DNA of 64,000 bases, from the NCBI GenBank assembly GCA_016788885.1, contig JAEURX010000013.1, positions 59,820 to 123,819 of the forward strand, written 5' to 3'. The stretch comes from Nitrospira sp. GTDB taxonomy: Bacteria > Nitrospirota > Nitrospiria > Nitrospirales > Nitrospiraceae. The notes below the pieces were generated by a model. The model was not told where the DNA came from. It ran no database searches and saw nothing but the letters and a program-made list of their open reading frames with translations. The stretch's first letter is position 1, and the number at the start of each line of letters is the position of its first letter. The position numbers were made by a program, and so were the translations under genes. Below are positions 54,663 through 61,801 of this stretch, piece by piece.

Positions 54663-55448
54663 TTGTCCGCCCGAATGGTGTATCATCCGGCCATGGTCGA
54701 CAAACTGCTCGCACAAGAACTGGCCACTCCCTATCCCACGGTCGTGCGGATCGTCGGGATAAAGATTCGTGATCGGGGAGAGGTGAAGAAATTCGATGCC
54801 GGAGAGGCGTCTCTTGCCTTCGGCGATCGCGTGCTGGTCGATGTGGTCGGTGAACTGACCTACGGTGTGGTCTACGGGATTCCACAAGTCACGCCGTTTA
54901 TCCCGCCGATGCGGGTGATGCAGACGATTGTCAGGAAGGCCACCCCCGAGGATGTGGTGACCATTGATCGTTACGAGCGGCTAGCGGCTGAAGGAATGCG
55001 GGCGTGTCGGGATCAAGCGGCGGCGCTTGGGCTCAGGATGAAGCTGGTCGAGGTGTTCTGCTCGTTTCACCGTCGGCAGATGACGTTTGTGTATACCGCC
55101 GATGATCGCATCGATTTTCGTGAACTGGTTCGTCTGCTTGCGCGCCGGTTTGGTGGGCGCATTGAAATGCGCCAGGTAGGGGTTCGCGATGAGGCGAGTC
55201 GATTGGGCGGGATCGATACCTGCGGACTCGTACTGTGCTGTGCCGCATTTTTGACAGAAGTGAAACCGGTGACTGTCAAGCAGGCCCGTATCTTGGGTCT
55301 TCCGGTCGACGATCCAAAATTGCTCGGCGTCTGCGGTCGTCTCAAGTGTTGCCTACTGTTTGAGGCCATGGAGAGTCAGCCCGTACCGGCATCGTCAAAG
55401 CCATCGAGCCTCATCAATCCTTCCCGTTCCCGTCTGGCTTCCTCCTAG
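54663..55448 (+). CDS. PSP1 / RicT(YaaT)-like protein
   Basis: YTADDRIDFRELV, IEMRQVGVRDE, CGLVLCC and GVCGRLKCCL. Confidence 0.9.
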   Translation: MSARMVYHPAMVDKLLAQELATPYPTVVRIVGIKIRDRGEVKKFDAGEASLAFGDRVLVDVVGELTYGVVYGIPQVTPFIPPMRVMQTIVRKATPEDVVTIDRYERLAAEGMRACRDQAAALGLRMKLVEVFCSFHRRQMTFVYTADDRIDFRELVRLLARRFGGRIEMRQVGVRDEASRLGGIDTCGLVLCCAAFLTEVKPVTVKQARILGLPVDDPKLLGVCGRLKCCLLFEAMESQPVPASSKPSSLINPSRSRLASS

Positions 55449-55577
55449 TCTTGTTGCCCATTTAGGCTGTCCTCGGCCGCGCATTCGCGCGGTAGGCGTT
55501 GGTCGTTCCATGGTCCTGCGGCGAGATCCCCTCTCGTGCTTTTTCCTCGAAAGAGTATAATGACCGTGAGGTGCGGA

Positions 55578-56669
55578 ATGCCTCAGGTACTTGTGCTCGG
55601 GGCCGGGAAGATCGGATCTTTGGTTGCCGCGCTGTTAGCAGCCAAAGGGCACTATCAGATTCATCTGGCCGATCTCACCCTTGATGCTCCCAAGCGGCTG
55701 ATCGATGAATTGGCACTGTCCACGGTGACCCCGTGCGCATTGGACGTGCGTCGCCCTGACTCCGTCCGAGAGTATGTGACCTCCCATCGGTTTGATGCCG
55801 TTCTCTCCGGACTCCCTTATTTTCACAATCCAACTGTTGCCGAACTCGCGCGTGCCCATCGCCTGCACTATTTTGATCTGACCGAAGACGTCGCCGTGAC
55901 CGGGCGGGTCAAAGTGATCAGTGAGGGGGCCGAGCGGGCATTCATTCCCCAATGCGGTCTGGCACCTGGGTTTATCAGTATCGTCACCAACGATCTGATC
56001 GGGCGGTTCGATTCTATCGACCATGTGAAGATGCGTGTCGGTGCGCTGCCGGTTCATCCGAGTAACGCGTTGAAGTATTCCCTGACATGGTCCACAGACG
56101 GTCTCTTGAATGAGTACGGGAACCCCTGTGTGGGAATCGAGGGAGGGCAGGAAGTTCGTCTGCAACCGTTGGAGGGGTATGAGACCATTGAACTCGATGG
56201 GCTGTTGTACGAAGCCTTTAATACCTCCGGCGGGCTGGGGACGTTGGCGGACACCTATCGGGGGCGGGTCCGCACCATGAACTATAAGACCCTTCGCTAT
56301 CCTGGCCATTGCGAAAAAATCCAATTTCTCATGAACGATCTGAAGTTGAATGAAGATCGGGACACGCTCAAACGCATTCTGGAACGAGCGATTCCGCAAA
56401 CGCACCAAGATGTGGTCTTGATGTACGCCTCCGTGACCGGGACCCGGCAGGGTGAATTATTTGAAGAGACCTACGTCAAGAAGGTCTATCCGAAAACCAT
56501 GTTTGGACGACTGTGGTCCGCCATTCAGGTGACGACGGCCTCGTCGCTGTGCTGCGTCGTTGATCTTGTCATGGCCAGGCCCTCAGCCTATCGCGGCTTT
56601 GTCAGGCAGGAGAATTTCCTCCTGCAGGATGTGTTGGACAATCGTTTCGGCGACTGCTTTCGTTCTTAG
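55578..56669 (+). CDS. Saccharopine dehydrogenase family, probable lysine 6-dehydrogenase
   Basis: VLGAGKIG, HYFDLTED, QCGLAPG, WSTDGLLNEY and YKTLRYPGH; start moved to 55578. Confidence 0.85.
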   Translation: MPQVLVLGAGKIGSLVAALLAAKGHYQIHLADLTLDAPKRLIDELALSTVTPCALDVRRPDSVREYVTSHRFDAVLSGLPYFHNPTVAELARAHRLHYFDLTEDVAVTGRVKVISEGAERAFIPQCGLAPGFISIVTNDLIGRFDSIDHVKMRVGALPVHPSNALKYSLTWSTDGLLNEYGNPCVGIEGGQEVRLQPLEGYETIELDGLLYEAFNTSGGLGTLADTYRGRVRTMNYKTLRYPGHCEKIQFLMNDLKLNEDRDTLKRILERAIPQTHQDVVLMYASVTGTRQGELFEETYVKKVYPKTMFGRLWSAIQVTTASSLCCVVDLVMARPSAYRGFVRQENFLLQDVLDNRFGDCFRS

Positions 56670-56675
56670 CGGATC

Positions 56676-58232
56676 ATGACAACGACTGAACTGTTGACCT
56701 CATTGGGCGTATTGCAGGAACAGCCAGCAGGCTCGCTGCCTTCCACGGCCGGCATCGGTACGGTGGCGACTGGAGTCCTGGAGTCACGAAATCCATCGAA
56801 TGGCAGGGTATTGGGTCGTGTGTACGGTTGTTCCGACGACGACTACCAAGGCCTCGTCGATGGGTTGTGTGAACGACAGCTCTCGTGGCGCCAGGTGCCG
56901 GCCCCCAAGCGAGGCGAAGTCATTCGTTTGATCGGGCAGGCGCTGAGGGAGCACAAAGACGCGTTGGGTACCCTGGTGTCGCTGGAAGTGGGCAAGATCA
57001 AATCCGAAGGGGACGGCGAAGTGCAGGAGATGATCGACATGGCGGATTTTGCCGTGGGGCTCTCCCGCATGTTGTATGGGCGCACCATGCATTCGGAACG
57101 CACTCGGCATCGGATGTATGAGCAATGGCATCCCTTGGGTGTGGTGGGAGTGATCACCGCATTTAATTTCCCGGTTGCGGTTTGGGCCTGGAACGCGTTC
57201 ATCGCGGCTGTTGCCGGAAACACGGTCTTGTGGAAGCCCTCGCCGAAGGCTCCGCTTTGTGCCCTCGCCGTGCAGCATCTGTGTAATCGAGTGTTGGAGG
57301 AGGTCGGGTATCCTGGCGTTCTTGCACTGCTCACGACTGATCGCGTCGAACTCGCCGACCGCATGGTCGGCGACGAACGACTCCCCCTGATCTCCTTTAC
57401 TGGGTCGGTAGCGGTGGGACGGCATGTAGCGGAGGTGGTCGGACATCGCTTGGGTCGCAGTCTGTTGGAATTGAGCGGAAATAATGCGGTGATTGTGGAC
57501 GAGACGGCAAATCTGGATTTGGCCACACGCGCGATTGTCTTCGGGGCGGTCGGGACCGCAGGTCAACGCTGCACTAGCACCAGACGGCTGATTGTGCATG
57601 AGTCGCACTATGAGAGGCTGGTGTCCCAGCTTCGTGCCGCCTATGCCCAGGTGACGATTGGCGACCCCTTGGATCCGGACGTCATGATGGGGCCACTGAT
57701 CGATGAGTACGCAGTTGCAAAGTATCAGGCGGCGCTCGACGCGGTGAGAACCGCCGGTGGAGAAATTCTCTGCGGGGGGCAGGTGTTGCGACGCCCAGGA
57801 TATTTTGTCGAGCCGACGATCGTCCGTGCGCAGAATGATTGGGACATTGTTCAGCAAGAAACATTTGCGCCGATCCTGTACGTCATGACGTATCGTACGT
57901 TGGATGAAGCCATCCACATGCAGAATGCGGTTCCGCAGGGATTGTCGTCCGCGTTGTTTACTCAATACCTTCGCCATAGTGAGGCCTTCCTGTCGGCCAT
58001 CGGCAGCGATTGCGGAATTGCGAATATCAACATCGGCACCTCTGGGGCGGAAATCGGTGGGGCGTTCGGTGGAGAGAAGGCTACCGGGGGAGGGCGTGAA
58101 GCTGGATCTGATGCCTGGAAAGCATACATGCGACGGCAAACGACGACTATCAATTGGGGAACGGAGTTGCCGTTGGCGCAGGGTGTGAAATTTGGGCGAG
58201 CGGAAGGAGGGGATGATGGGGCAAGCCACTGA
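56676..58232 (+). CDS. ALDH7-type aldehyde dehydrogenase (piperideine-6-carboxylate / aminoadipate-semialdehyde dehydrogenase)
   Basis: [35 protein letters not shown] and [25 protein letters not shown]. Confidence 0.92.
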
Positions 58233-58809
58233 ACTCGATACCGTCCTGGCTCGAATGACCGCTGACTTTCTGGCACACAATAGTGCAGCTGAACTGCTGC
58301 GTCAGGCATTGGATGATATCGGGGTGGGATTTGTCCCCGTGATGGATCACGTGACCATCAGAACAGGGGACATCGACCGACGCGCGGAAGAGTTCATTGG
58401 GCTGGGGTATGAGTATGATGAAACGATTCGGTATGAGGATTGGTATGCAAAGGTCTACAGGAAGGCTGGGTATCCGGCGTTATTTGTCGATCAGGCCTAT
58501 CCGGACGACCGTGGTAACACCAGCATCATTCCTCGTTGGGTGGAAAAGTTTGGTGATCGCGTATTGCATCATGTCGCGGTGCGGGTGGAGGATATCGAGC
58601 AAGCCATTCTCAAGTTGAAAGCGAGAGGCATTGTCTTTGCTGGGGAGATTGTCGGTGCACGGGGAGGCCCGCTGAGACAGATTTTTACCGCTCCGGAGAT
58701 GGTCGATGGCCAGCCCTTCTCGGTGCTGGAACTGGCTGAGCGTCATCAGGGCTATCAGGGGTTTCTTCCTCCCCAAGCGGACAGCCTGATGCGATCCACG
58801 GTGCGCTGA
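58213..58809 (+). CDS. VOC-superfamily metalloenzyme, HglS/DUF1338-like
   Basis: [15 protein letters not shown] and LELAER give a His/His/Glu triad; overlaps the ALDH stop. Confidence 0.7.
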
Positions 58810-58975: not shown

Positions 58976-60046
58976 ATGATGCGATTTGCTTTGCCGGTTC
59001 GCGCGATCACGATACTGCTCTGTCTCCGTGCGTTCGAGGGGGGGGATGGCCTTGTTCAGGCCTCGCCCTCCGCTCATGCGCCTCATGGCACTGTGACCAT
59101 TGAAGGTGTGACCGTACCTGATATCGGGCCGCTGCCTGCCGTCGTTCCTGTCCCTTCTTCGAATCTGAACTATGCCGCGAAGATAGAACTCGGCAAACAA
59201 CTGTATTTCGATGGGCGGCTTTCCAAGAATAACGCCATCTCTTGTGCATTTTGTCACAATCCAGGGACAGGCTTTGCGGATTCCCGTCAAACCTCTATCG
59301 GGGTCGACGGTGGGGTCGGAGGGCGTCAATCGCCGACGGTCTACAACACGGCATTTAACCATGTGCAGTTCTGGGATGGACGGGCGCGGTCCTTGGAGGA
59401 GCAGGCGATCGGGCCGATTCATAATCCCGTCGAGATGGCCGAAACACATGAGCATGTGGTGTCCAAGTTGAGCAAAATCAAAGGCTACCAACAGCAATTT
59501 CGAGCGGTGTTTGGAGCCGAGGTGAGTTTGCAAGGGATCGCCGAAGCCATTGCAGCCTATGAGCGCACAGTGCTGTCGACGAATTCAGCGTTTGATAAGT
59601 ATATGTTAGGCGATCAGAAGGCGATGGATGAGGCGGCGGTTCGTGGTCTGGCGCTCTTTAAAGGCAAAGCCCGCTGCGTGCTTTGCCACAGCGGGGCGAA
59701 CTTGACGGATAATCAGTTCCACAATCTTGGTGTGCCTCAGGTGGGGCCGATGAAAGAGGACCTCGGTCGGTATAACGTCACCAGGGCGGAAAAAGACAAG
59801 CGTGCGTTCAAGACTCCCACGCTGCGCAGCATTACGGAAACGTCGCCATACATGCACGACGGTGCGTTTAAGACGCTGGAGGAAGTGGTTGAGTTTATGG
59901 ATCAAGGGGGTGGGAGCAATCCCAATCTGAGTCCGCTGGTGAAACCTTTGAACTTGACCGCGGAAGAAAAGACCGACCTCGTGGCGTTTTTGAAGGCGTT
60001 GACGGGTGAGCCGTTGAAGTTCAGCATGCCGAAGTTGCCAAAATAA
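58976..60046 (+). CDS. Periplasmic diheme cytochrome c peroxidase (bCcP/MauG superfamily)
   Basis: LGKQLYFDGRLS, CAFCH, QFWDGR, CVLCH and FKTPTLR...PYMHDG; signal peptide; start moved to 58976. Confidence 0.93.
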   Translation: MMRFALPVRAITILLCLRAFEGGDGLVQASPSAHAPHGTVTIEGVTVPDIGPLPAVVPVPSSNLNYAAKIELGKQLYFDGRLSKNNAISCAFCHNPGTGFADSRQTSIGVDGGVGGRQSPTVYNTAFNHVQFWDGRARSLEEQAIGPIHNPVEMAETHEHVVSKLSKIKGYQQQFRAVFGAEVSLQGIAEAIAAYERTVLSTNSAFDKYMLGDQKAMDEAAVRGLALFKGKARCVLCHSGANLTDNQFHNLGVPQVGPMKEDLGRYNVTRAEKDKRAFKTPTLRSITETSPYMHDGAFKTLEEVVEFMDQGGGSNPNLSPLVKPLNLTAEEKTDLVAFLKALTGEPLKFSMPKLPK

Positions 60047-60157
60047 TTTGTGAATCCTTTTTGATGGCCATGGCTCTCACGGGCAGGCGAGCGTAATGGA
60101 TTGGTTTGTTCATACATCATCTCGGTGCATTCCAACCCCAACCAGAGGAGGCCTCAT

Positions 60158-60664
60158 ATGTTTCGACATCTTTGCGTGCTTGGTGCGAGCACGCTGGTAC
60201 TTGCCATCGGCGGGCCCGTCTTCGCAGCGGACGGGAAACCGGGGCCGGCAGACGGATTCGACATTCACGTAATGGCGCCCCATAAGATGGAGGACGGCTC
60301 TGTGGCTGGCCCGTTCCATCACTATTGTAAGGCCATCAAGCCGGAAGTATTGCAGTGTCTGCTGTTTGAGTCGACGGAGCCGAATGCAGTGCTGACGGAT
60401 GTGGAGTATTTCGTCGCGAAACCTGTGTCTCGATCGGCGGTGTCGCTCGACGTATGGAATAAGTTTTATCATGACCATGAAGTCGAGATTGCCACTGGGC
60501 GGGTTCAGGTATTGGACATGCCTGATGCGCAGGCGAAGGACGTTGCGGCAGCCGCTGCCAAGACAGATGGGATCATTTTTCATTTGTGGCCGAAGGGCGC
60601 CAAAGCTCCGGATGGAACGGTCGGGCATCCGACCTCAGTTGGACATAAGCCACGGACGGAGTAA
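60158..60664 (+). CDS. DUF1264/OBAP-family protein, Sec signal peptide
   Basis: HHYC, QCLLF, VEY, HDHEVE and TDG..FHLW; RBS GAGGAGG; start moved to 60158. Confidence 0.8.
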   Translation: MFRHLCVLGASTLVLAIGGPVFAADGKPGPADGFDIHVMAPHKMEDGSVAGPFHHYCKAIKPEVLQCLLFESTEPNAVLTDVEYFVAKPVSRSAVSLDVWNKFYHDHEVEIATGRVQVLDMPDAQAKDVAAAAAKTDGIIFHLWPKGAKAPDGTVGHPTSVGHKPRTE

Positions 60665-60715
60665 CACCGCCGTTCACCAATGATCGATTCCAAGACGAAA
60701 GGTAAGGAGGCCACT

Positions 60716-61267
60716 ATGCGAAGTGCGATTGCGGTGATTGGGTTGTGTGCCGCCGTGGTGACGGCGACTGGTTGTGCGGAAACCTCTCATGAAATGAAAA
60801 CAGCTGCCACCGCGGCACCGGCTGCCGCGGCAAGGTCCCTGCCGACTCCGGCGCAGGGCTATACGATTCACGTGATGGCGCCTCATAAGTTCGAGGACGG
60901 TTCCGTCCATGGTCCGTATCATCACTACTGCAAGCCCATCTCCCCTGAGGTGTTGCAGTGTCTGCTGTTCGAATCGACCGATTCGAACGCCTTGCTGACG
61001 GACATTGAGTATTTCGTCGCCAAATCCGTTTCGAGGTCTCATGTCCCATTGGAAACATGGAATAAGTACTACCACGATCATGAAGTTGAGATTGCGACGG
61101 GACGGGTACAGATTCTTGACATGCCTGATGCTCAGGCAAAGGAAGTCGCGGCGGCTGCGGCCAAGACAGATGGAATCATTTTCCATCTTTGGCCGGATGG
61201 CGCGAAGGCGCCGAATGGTGAGGTTGGACATCCGCAGTCGGTTGGCCATAAGCCTCGAACCGAATAG
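60716..61267 (+). CDS. DUF1264/OBAP-family paralogue, lipoprotein
   Basis: Same motifs as the upstream gene; lipobox TATGC; RBS TAAGGAGG; start moved to 60716. Confidence 0.8.
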   Translation: MRSAIAVIGLCAAVVTATGCAETSHEMKTAATAAPAAAARSLPTPAQGYTIHVMAPHKFEDGSVHGPYHHYCKPISPEVLQCLLFESTDSNALLTDIEYFVAKSVSRSHVPLETWNKYYHDHEVEIATGRVQILDMPDAQAKEVAAAAAKTDGIIFHLWPDGAKAPNGEVGHPQSVGHKPRTE

Positions 61268-61285
61268 CAGCGCAAGGTAACACTG

Positions 61286-61334
61286 ACAGGCGGAAAGGCC
61301 GGAACATGAGGCTTTTCCGCCTGTGCTGTTTCTT
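61286..61334 (+). terminator. Probable terminator or stabilising hairpin after the DUF1264 pair
   Basis: ACAGGCGGAAAGGCC / GGCTTTTCCGCCTGT stem followed by GCTGTTTCTT. Confidence 0.65.
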
Positions 61335-61351
61335 GTAGGGATGGAGATGCC

Positions 61352-61801
61352 ATGATGCGATGTGGCCGTGTGTGGATACTTGCTGGGGCGTTATTGAGTC
61401 TGGCTGCCGCCGTGTGGTCGGCGGATTCGGAGGTGTTGCGGCCTCGTGTACCAATCGACCAGATGGAATCTGCCCGCGCAGTGACTAATCCCTTCCCCGT
61501 GACCCCCGAAGTGCTTCAGAAGGGTAAGGCCCTTTTTGAAGGGAAAGCGTTTTGTCGTGCCTGCCACGGAGCGGATGGGAAAGGATTGGGAATGGACTTG
61601 GACTATTCCACGTTCAAGGGACCGCTCCCAAGGAATTTTACCGACAAGATGTGGCAGCAGACCAGAACGGATGGAGAATTGTTTTGGATTCTGAAAAACG
61701 GAAGCCCCGGAACGGATATGGCGCCGTTTATTCCATTGATTTTGACGGAAGAGGAAGCGTGGCAGGTCCTGATGTATGTTCGGTCGTTCGGTCGGCCATG
61801 A
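61352..61801 (+). CDS. Monoheme c-type cytochrome
   Basis: Signal peptide, CRACH, PRNFTD and PGTDMAPF (candidate Met ligand). Confidence 0.92.
   Translation: MMRCGRVWILAGALLSLAAAVWSADSEVLRPRVPIDQMESARAVTNPFPVTPEVLQKGKALFEGKAFCRACHGADGKGLGMDLDYSTFKGPLPRNFTDKMWQQTRTDGELFWILKNGSPGTDMAPFIPLILTEEEAWQVLMYVRSFGRP

Follow-up and report, generated by a model that had tools for sequence, protein, structure and literature searches.

Here we describe an operon of the nitrite-oxidising bacterium Nitrospira sp. (assembly GCA_016788885.1, contig JAEURX010000013.1) whose last gene encodes a member of a compact sister subfamily of the 2-oxoadipate dioxygenase/decarboxylase HglS that is missed by current annotation. 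The operon lies within a stretch of 64,000 nucleotides (nt), referred to here as the window, and consists of three genes on the forward strand. Gene 1 (55578-56669) encodes an L-lysine 6-dehydrogenase-like protein of the saccharopine dehydrogenase family, gene 2 (56676-58232) an ALDH7-type piperideine-6-carboxylate (P6C)/aminoadipate-semialdehyde dehydrogenase, and gene 3 (58216-58809) a single-domain VOC protein of 197 amino acids (aa), predicted to be an HglS/FLO7-like 2-oxoadipate dioxygenase/decarboxylase. The compact HglS-like reading of gene 3 is a prediction that is well supported by fold, residues, phylogeny and gene context, and we consider it probable that the protein is an Fe(II)/O2 enzyme that turns 2-oxoadipate into D-2-hydroxyglutarate in lysine salvage. 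We speak of a sister subfamily and not of a filed member of PF07063, the HglS model, because the protein fails the hidden Markov model (HMM) test of that family. As modelled, the gene-3 family would combine DUF1338-type N-terminal helices and a C-terminal lid with a core without the helical insert seen in PF07063 proteins.

Fold, active site and descent of the gene 3 protein

The AlphaFold model of gene 3 (pLDDT 94.4, pTM 0.90) was searched with VIA-align against 48,161 PDB representatives. The best match was rice FLO7 with 2-oxoadipate (6W1K; Z 21.3, rmsd 2.2, 193 of 197 residues). Other DUF1338 structures followed with Z 19.6 (3LHO), 18.2 (3IUZ) and 12.8 (2RJB), and hydroxymandelate synthase (HMS) reached 16.6. 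A Foldseek search, a check proposed in a first-pass annotation of the stretch, likewise ranked DUF1338 structures first (3LHO and 6W1K), and in an Atlas comparison the model fitted a 233-aa PF07063 cluster with TM 0.86. The other single-domain VOC protein of the genome, encoded in a tyrosine operon, served as a control. Its model matched HMS best (Z 17.6) and FLO7 with only 11.4, indicating that the structural method discriminates. The model of gene 3 thus takes a DUF1338-type VOC fold.

The predicted active site lies in three motifs that had been picked out in the first-pass annotation and are found where they were placed, DHVTIRT at residues 44-50, LHHVAV at 117-122 and LELAER at 171-176. 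His45 (58348-58350) is the first predicted Fe ligand; alignment to 6W1K and 3LHO makes it the equivalent of HglS His70, and it is kept in 173 of 174 homologues. The second, His119 (58570-58572), aligns with QHIA of HPPD and NHF of PF07063 and is present in 174/174, and the third, Glu172 (58729-58731), aligns with EIAER of PF07063 and LEVIQR of HPPD (172/174). Arg49 (58360-58362), at the His+4 position, is predicted to be salt-bridged to the distal carboxylate. It corresponds to HglS Arg74 and FLO7 Arg64 in the DHxAxRT alignment with FLO7 and 3LHO, and 172 of the 174 homologues have it. In HglS the ligands are His70, His226 and Glu294, and Arg74, likewise at His+4, fixes the specificity for 2-oxoadipate; the R74A variant is inactive, and neither 2-oxoglutarate nor 2-oxopimelate is turned over by the enzyme (PMC7286885). 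Judged by alignment, gene 3 appears to keep both the His-His-Glu metal triad and the specificity arginine of HglS.

Profile comparisons and phylogeny point in the same direction. The search with gene 3 representatives reached true PF07063 proteins of the myxococcal type, and these served for alignment and tree. With hhalign, the alignment of gene 3 to short PF07063 proteins runs from one end to the other (E 7e-19, 185 columns), and for the N-terminal profile of gene 3 the top match is 6W1K (FLO7). The size difference to PF07063 proteins of about 250 aa comes down to one insert of about 45 residues that is missing from gene 3. Both share the motifs DHxxxRT, W-x-x-x-FG, I-x-G-x-x-G-x-x-LRQ, E-x-A-E-R and GF-x-x-x-QA, and the C-terminal segment G-Y-x-G-F-x-P-x-Q-A...S-T with its helix (58750-58800), a predicted active-site lid, matches the short PF07063 proteins nearly letter for letter. 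Because a first tree (95/86) could reflect the shared N-terminal helices, it was redone on the core alone. The core-only tree separates the gene-3 family plus PF07063 from a family of about 160-170 aa, single-domain HPPD-like proteins and two-domain relatives with 100/100 for the split; it is unrooted, its PF07063 branch is long and it holds a single PF07063 subgroup, the myxococcal type. Profile alignment and tree both support common descent of gene 3 and the PF07063 proteins.

HMM scores alone give another impression. Apart from a weak match to the HPPD model TIGR01263 (17.4 bits, cut-off 277), gene 3 matches Glyoxalase_4 (31.4 bits, the only Pfam match), Glyoxalase and the methylmalonyl-CoA epimerase model TIGR03081 (31.4 bits, far below the cut-off of 114.95), as would be expected of a non-oxidative VOC enzyme, that is a glyoxalase- or methylmalonyl-CoA-epimerase-like isomerase. 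We regard this as very unlikely. Structural matches to epimerases and glyoxalases reach a Z of about 11.6 over some 125 residues, against 21.3 over 193 for FLO7. Moreover, the N-terminal helices and the C-terminal lid helix lie outside these matches, and the tree puts gene 3 with PF07063. A best match to glyoxalase or epimerase, which the first-pass annotation had named, together with a lack of 2-oxoadipate turnover, as an outcome that would overturn its proposal, would seem to be found on HMM scores alone, whereas structure and tree say HglS-like. The two-domain architecture of HPPD and HMS is not seen in gene 3, which has one domain in 197 aa.

Operon structure and the predicted lysine pathway

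Genes 1 and 2 are separated by 6 nt, and gene 3 begins 17-20 nt before gene 2 ends, with an alternative adjacent ATG at 58213 that would give a protein of 198 aa. Open reading frames and family matches confirm the set proposed in the first-pass annotation, a saccharopine/lysine-dehydrogenase-family gene, an ALDH7 gene and an overlapping gene for about 198 aa. Where 3 kb or more of upstream DNA is available in related Nitrospiraceae loci, genes 1 and 2 stand directly upstream of gene 3 in 64 of 64 cases, while the flanking genes vary; hence the clustering is not due to chance. Upstream of gene 1, at a distance of 14-33 nt, 64 of 65 loci have a -10 box of the TATAAT/TATACT type, compared with 10 of 650 background windows. 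In the window the -10 box of the putative operon promoter is the forward-strand hexamer TATAAT at 55556-55561, and the -35 element is not clear. A generic promoter and terminator scan yielded nothing above shuffled controls; it missed the box for want of a -35. The three genes form a genuine conserved operon. Its nearest named homologue is that of N. defluvii (92-93% identity), and gene 3 gave no tblastn match against plasmids.

Gene 1 (363 aa; ATG start with a GAGGTG ribosome binding site) contains the Pfam domains Sacchrp_dh_NADP and Sacchrp_dh_C and has no match among the curated HMMs of NCBIfam. Its best PDB match is 3ABI (E 1e-19), followed by 3IC5, which we take to be R. pomeroyi SPO0234. 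Saccharopine reductase 1E5Q reaches only 6e-4, and the carboxyspermidine dehydrogenase structures 4RL6 and 4INA are absent among the PDB matches at E<0.001. 3ABI is an L-lysine 6-dehydrogenase (PMC10413350). Among characterised proteins, gene 1 is thus closest to lysine dehydrogenases and not to saccharopine reductase or carboxyspermidine dehydrogenase, and the protein shares 47% identity with the product of a gene from Ruegeria that lies ahead of an ALDH gene. By homology, we infer that gene 1 acts on lysine. Gene 2 (518 aa) scores 756.6 bits on the L-piperidine-6-carboxylate dehydrogenase model NF050084 (cut-off 730), and its best solved relatives are antiquitin, human ALDH7A1 and Pcd, with E values of 1e-155 or better. 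The genome contains lysA, indicating that lysine is made by the diaminopimelate route and that a catabolic role of the operon is more likely than a biosynthetic one.

From these assignments a pathway can be proposed. Going by homology, gene 1 would use NAD+ to deaminate the epsilon-amine of L-lysine, giving 2-aminoadipate semialdehyde/P6C and ammonium, and gene 2, by its family score, would oxidise this product to L-2-aminoadipate. The next step is a gap in the operon that a broad-specificity aminotransferase encoded elsewhere might fill, forming 2-oxoadipate. Gene 3 would hold Fe(II) by His45, His119 and Glu172 and chelate the 2-oxo acid end of 2-oxoadipate, as fold, residues, phylogeny and context suggest, while Arg49 would grip the distal carboxylate; an O2-driven decarboxylation and hydroxylation of the HMS/HglS type would then give D-2-hydroxyglutarate and CO2. 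Finally, a single YdiJ-like FAD-oxidase/iron-sulfur (Fe-S) protein of the genome is a candidate for the oxidation of D-2-hydroxyglutarate to 2-oxoglutarate.

The operon most plausibly serves lysine catabolism, in the sense of salvage or detoxification. A different role would be production of 2-aminoadipate as an osmolyte or clearance of toxic aminoadipate semialdehyde, as in R. pomeroyi, with gene 3 as an overflow valve or gene 1 as a saccharopine dehydrogenase. The lysdh-aasadh pair of R. pomeroyi has been verified and gives aminoadipate under salt stress (PMC4334477), and the lack of a transaminase in the Nitrospira operon would fit such a role. Yet the translation of gene 3 is coupled to that of gene 2, all 64 loci retain gene 3, and gene 1 is far closer to lysine 6-dehydrogenase than to saccharopine reductase. 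A lysine-ketoglutarate reductase partner was also not found in the genome, as the sole AlaDh_PNT_N match has the size of alanine dehydrogenase. We therefore hold this role to be improbable. The first-pass annotation had left the choice between a lysine-salvage and an osmolyte route; we favour salvage and catabolism over osmolyte accumulation, because gene 3 would remove 2-oxoadipate.

Gene neighbourhoods, pathway gaps and alternative substrates

Of 301 Nitrospirota genomes, 73 have a strong gene 3 orthologue, and every one of these 73 belongs to the class Nitrospiria. In a PF07063 scan of the source genome and the same 301 genomes no protein scored above the cut-off, and the single weak match was a gene-3 orthologue itself. 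The partners of gene 3 homologues are modular. A GucD-like ALDH, of the 2-oxoglutarate semialdehyde type but below cut-off, accompanies gene 3 together with a lysine dehydrogenase-like gene (loci L083, L100, L102, L103). Elsewhere, a PRK05769-type class-III omega-aminotransferase and a GucD-like ALDH replace lysine dehydrogenase and ALDH7 (L098:3524-6939, L105:2940-6621). Downstream, in other lineages, a gene of the FAD-linked D-2-hydroxyacid dehydrogenase family can follow gene 3 directly. This is the case in 28 of the 80 metagenome loci; these 28 form 7 clusters at 70% identity, and in them the oxidase match starts 13-78 nt behind the gene 3 homologue. These oxidases belong with D-lactate, glycolate and D-2-hydroxyglutarate dehydrogenases, and such a neighbour is what a D-2-hydroxyglutarate product of gene 3 predicts. 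Canonical DUF1338 genes have neighbours of the same kinds, namely ALDH7, aminotransferase and glycolate-dehydrogenase family (bioRxiv 450254). Thus, the upstream and downstream contexts independently fit 2-oxoadipate as input and a D-2-hydroxy acid as output. Searching Nitrospirota with one query of the FAD-oxidase clade gave no close orthologue; the matches had 27-33% identity and were nearly all YdiJ-like proteins of about 950 aa.

One lineage differs in its gene order, with the gene 3 homologue between a ferredoxin gene and a block of dCMP-deaminase/kinase and LytB genes (L108:5001-5630, L110:1905-2570; L118, L120, L127, L154). Where the FAD oxidase follows, the active site is intact; among the copies that lack this neighbour, some are missing triad residues or Arg49, which looks like decay or a change of function.

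For the steps placed outside the operon the genome offers partial candidates. Its three class-III aminotransferases are ArgD, BioA and HemL, and there are eleven class-I/II matches, of which one was classified, as alanine-transaminase-like. The only FAD-oxidase_C protein (L192:4570-7497; about 950 aa) has a YdiJ-like architecture with Fe-S and CCG domains and adjoins a D-2-hydroxyacid dehydrogenase-like gene; by its domains it is a candidate D-2-hydroxyglutarate dehydrogenase. In P. putida the genes for 2-aminoadipate transaminase and D-2-hydroxyglutarate dehydrogenase likewise lie outside the operon (bioRxiv 450254).

Several points weigh against 2-oxoadipate turnover by gene 3. The protein has no match to PF07063 at the gathering threshold of 25 bits, its best orthologues score 21-22.4 bits, and identity to the solved DUF1338 proteins is only 18-26%. 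By sequence, HPPD gives the higher score for the C-terminal half, and the SE positions of PF07063 are DQ in the profile alignment, indicating that the pocket differs. A 2-aminoadipate transaminase is not encoded in the operon, and no dedicated one was found in the genome. The YdiJ-like protein reaches 299 bits on the YdiJ model (cut-off 1350), the FAD oxidases beside gene 3 homologues cannot be told by sequence from D-lactate and glycolate dehydrogenases, and several deeper-branching Nitrospiria have a gene 3 homologue without any of the neighbours described above. For an HglS-like enzyme at the end of a lysine operon, as first proposed, structure, profile alignment, tree, His-His-Glu with Arg and the D-2-hydroxyacid dehydrogenase context all speak, while the failed PF07063 test and the lack of a dedicated transaminase among the genes classified qualify the proposal.

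Some of these points would suit an enzyme with the same Fe/O2 chemistry that uses another 2-oxo acid or forms another product. It might, for instance, turn 2-oxoglutarate into malate in an ornithine/arginine route or act on 2-oxopimelate, and its reaction would be new among the two-substrate 2-oxo-acid oxygenases. A pocket without the PF07063 insert and with DQ for SE, the operons that pair a gene 3 homologue with omega-aminotransferase and GucD-like ALDH, and the lack of an identified 2-aminoadipate transaminase in the genome are in line with this idea. However, gene 3 has the arginine at His+4 that fixes chain length in HglS, an enzyme inactive on 2-oxoglutarate and 2-oxopimelate, gene 2 scores above the P6C dehydrogenase cut-off, and the GucD-like ALDH is also found with a lysine dehydrogenase-like gene. 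Another substrate is thus unlikely in our view.

If gene 3 does act on 2-oxoadipate, the 2-oxoadipate step of lysine catabolism is filled in Nitrospirota, a phylum in which the search of 301 genomes found no HglS, and nitrifying Nitrospira can send lysine carbon to 2-oxoglutarate, freeing ammonium. More than 1,400 database sequences that at present go by 'VOC family protein' would receive a family name, and a scaffold of less than 200 residues, between HPPD and HglS, would become available for study and engineering of decarboxylating 2-oxo-acid oxygenases. Pseudomonas and plants already provide precedents for the chemistry and the pathway logic. Our literature search found no paper on the gene-3 family or on this lysine pathway in Nitrospira.

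Relatives of gene 3 and comparison with known systems

The surroundings of the operon are less conserved. Upstream lies a RicT/YaaT (PSP1) gene (54690-55448), which is next to the operon in hardly any but the closest relatives. Downstream, at 58976-61801, there is a di-haem cytochrome c peroxidase/MauG-like gene with two DUF1264 paralogues and a cytochrome c, a block that often, but not always, adjoins the operon in relatives. A record titled 'uncultured Nitrosospira' (L062) contains a Nitrospira-type operon with 71-72% identity and is probably mislabelled or misbinned, and one locus has a second, frameshifted gene 3 copy beside insertion-sequence genes (L097:6321-7004).

Even smaller proteins with similar motifs exist. 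In each of 7 genomes from another Nitrospiria family (f10), a gene for a 171-aa VOC protein lies 8-33 nt downstream of a different saccharopine/lysine dehydrogenase-family gene (402 aa). This protein has DHxAxR, HHxA, ExxxR and LMxST motifs in a His/Arg/His/Glu pattern without N-terminal helices (L104:2007-2522; L222-L228), and it groups apart from PF07063 in the tree; its motifs make it a candidate for an even smaller HglS-like enzyme. The description of gene 3 as unusually small in the first-pass annotation is correct with regard to the characterised enzymes, but some annotated PF07063 proteins have only 232-234 aa and the 171-aa candidate is shorter.

The tyrosine operon mentioned above holds a single-domain HPPD-like gene (190-200 aa; L001:5797-6393, L203-L216), found in this arrangement in the source genome and in 14 of 14 related loci. 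It has the His-His-Glu pattern with Cys for Arg at His+4, lacks the N-terminal VOC domain and is immediately followed by the genes for homogentisate 1,2-dioxygenase and fumarylacetoacetate hydrolase. It is likely a stand-alone catalytic-domain HPPD, and a single-domain HPPD was not found described in our literature search. Further relatives are PF07063 (HGLS) domains fused to a C-terminal PilZ domain (P0229, P0243, P0377-P0379), an arrangement that suggests control of the oxygenase by c-di-GMP. There are also unannotated two-domain proteins of 320-415 aa whose C-terminal VOC domain has a DHxAxR-type motif (P0216, P0220, P0221, P0232, P0237; Atlas matches). It is conceivable, although doubtful, that the gene-3 family performs a new reaction on another 2-oxo dicarboxylate (e.g., 2-oxoglutarate to malate) and represents, with the 171-aa family and the single-domain HPPD, a free-standing one-domain form that was later elaborated into HPPD, HMS and HglS.

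Compared with methylmalonyl-CoA epimerase and glyoxalase I, gene 3 has the VOC core and weak HMM matches in common, but these enzymes lack the N- and C-terminal helices, and structural score and coverage are much lower. With the catalytic domain of HPPD and HMS it shares the triad and the compact core; it differs by the absent N-terminal VOC domain, the arginine at His+4 and the place in a lysine operon. The likeness to HglS, YdcJ and FLO7 extends over the VOC fold of 193 of 197 residues, His-His-Glu, Arg at His+4 and the N-terminal helix pair, and short myxococcal PF07063 members share the E-x-A-E-R and G-F-x-x-x-Q-A motifs of the C-terminus. Gene neighbours are of the same kinds in gene 3 and HglS/DUF1338 systems. 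However, gene 3 is shorter (197 aa, compared with 447 for YdcJ, 322 for the FLO7 construct, 267 for 3LHO and about 232-258 for the shortest annotated PF07063 members), and unlike PF07063 it lacks the insert of about 45 residues, has HH for NH before the second ligand and DQ for SE, and scores below cut-off. It is also paired with a lysine 6-dehydrogenase, while the HglS system belongs to the D-lysine/pipecolate route. The first two genes, in contrast, have counterparts in the same order in the R. pomeroyi lysdh-aasadh operon (SPO0234-SPO0235) and in a Legionella pair, with gene 1 identities of 47% to Ruegeria sp. and 54% to L. adelaidensis. In these loci the third place is taken not by a VOC gene but by cyanophycinase or beta-oxidation genes.

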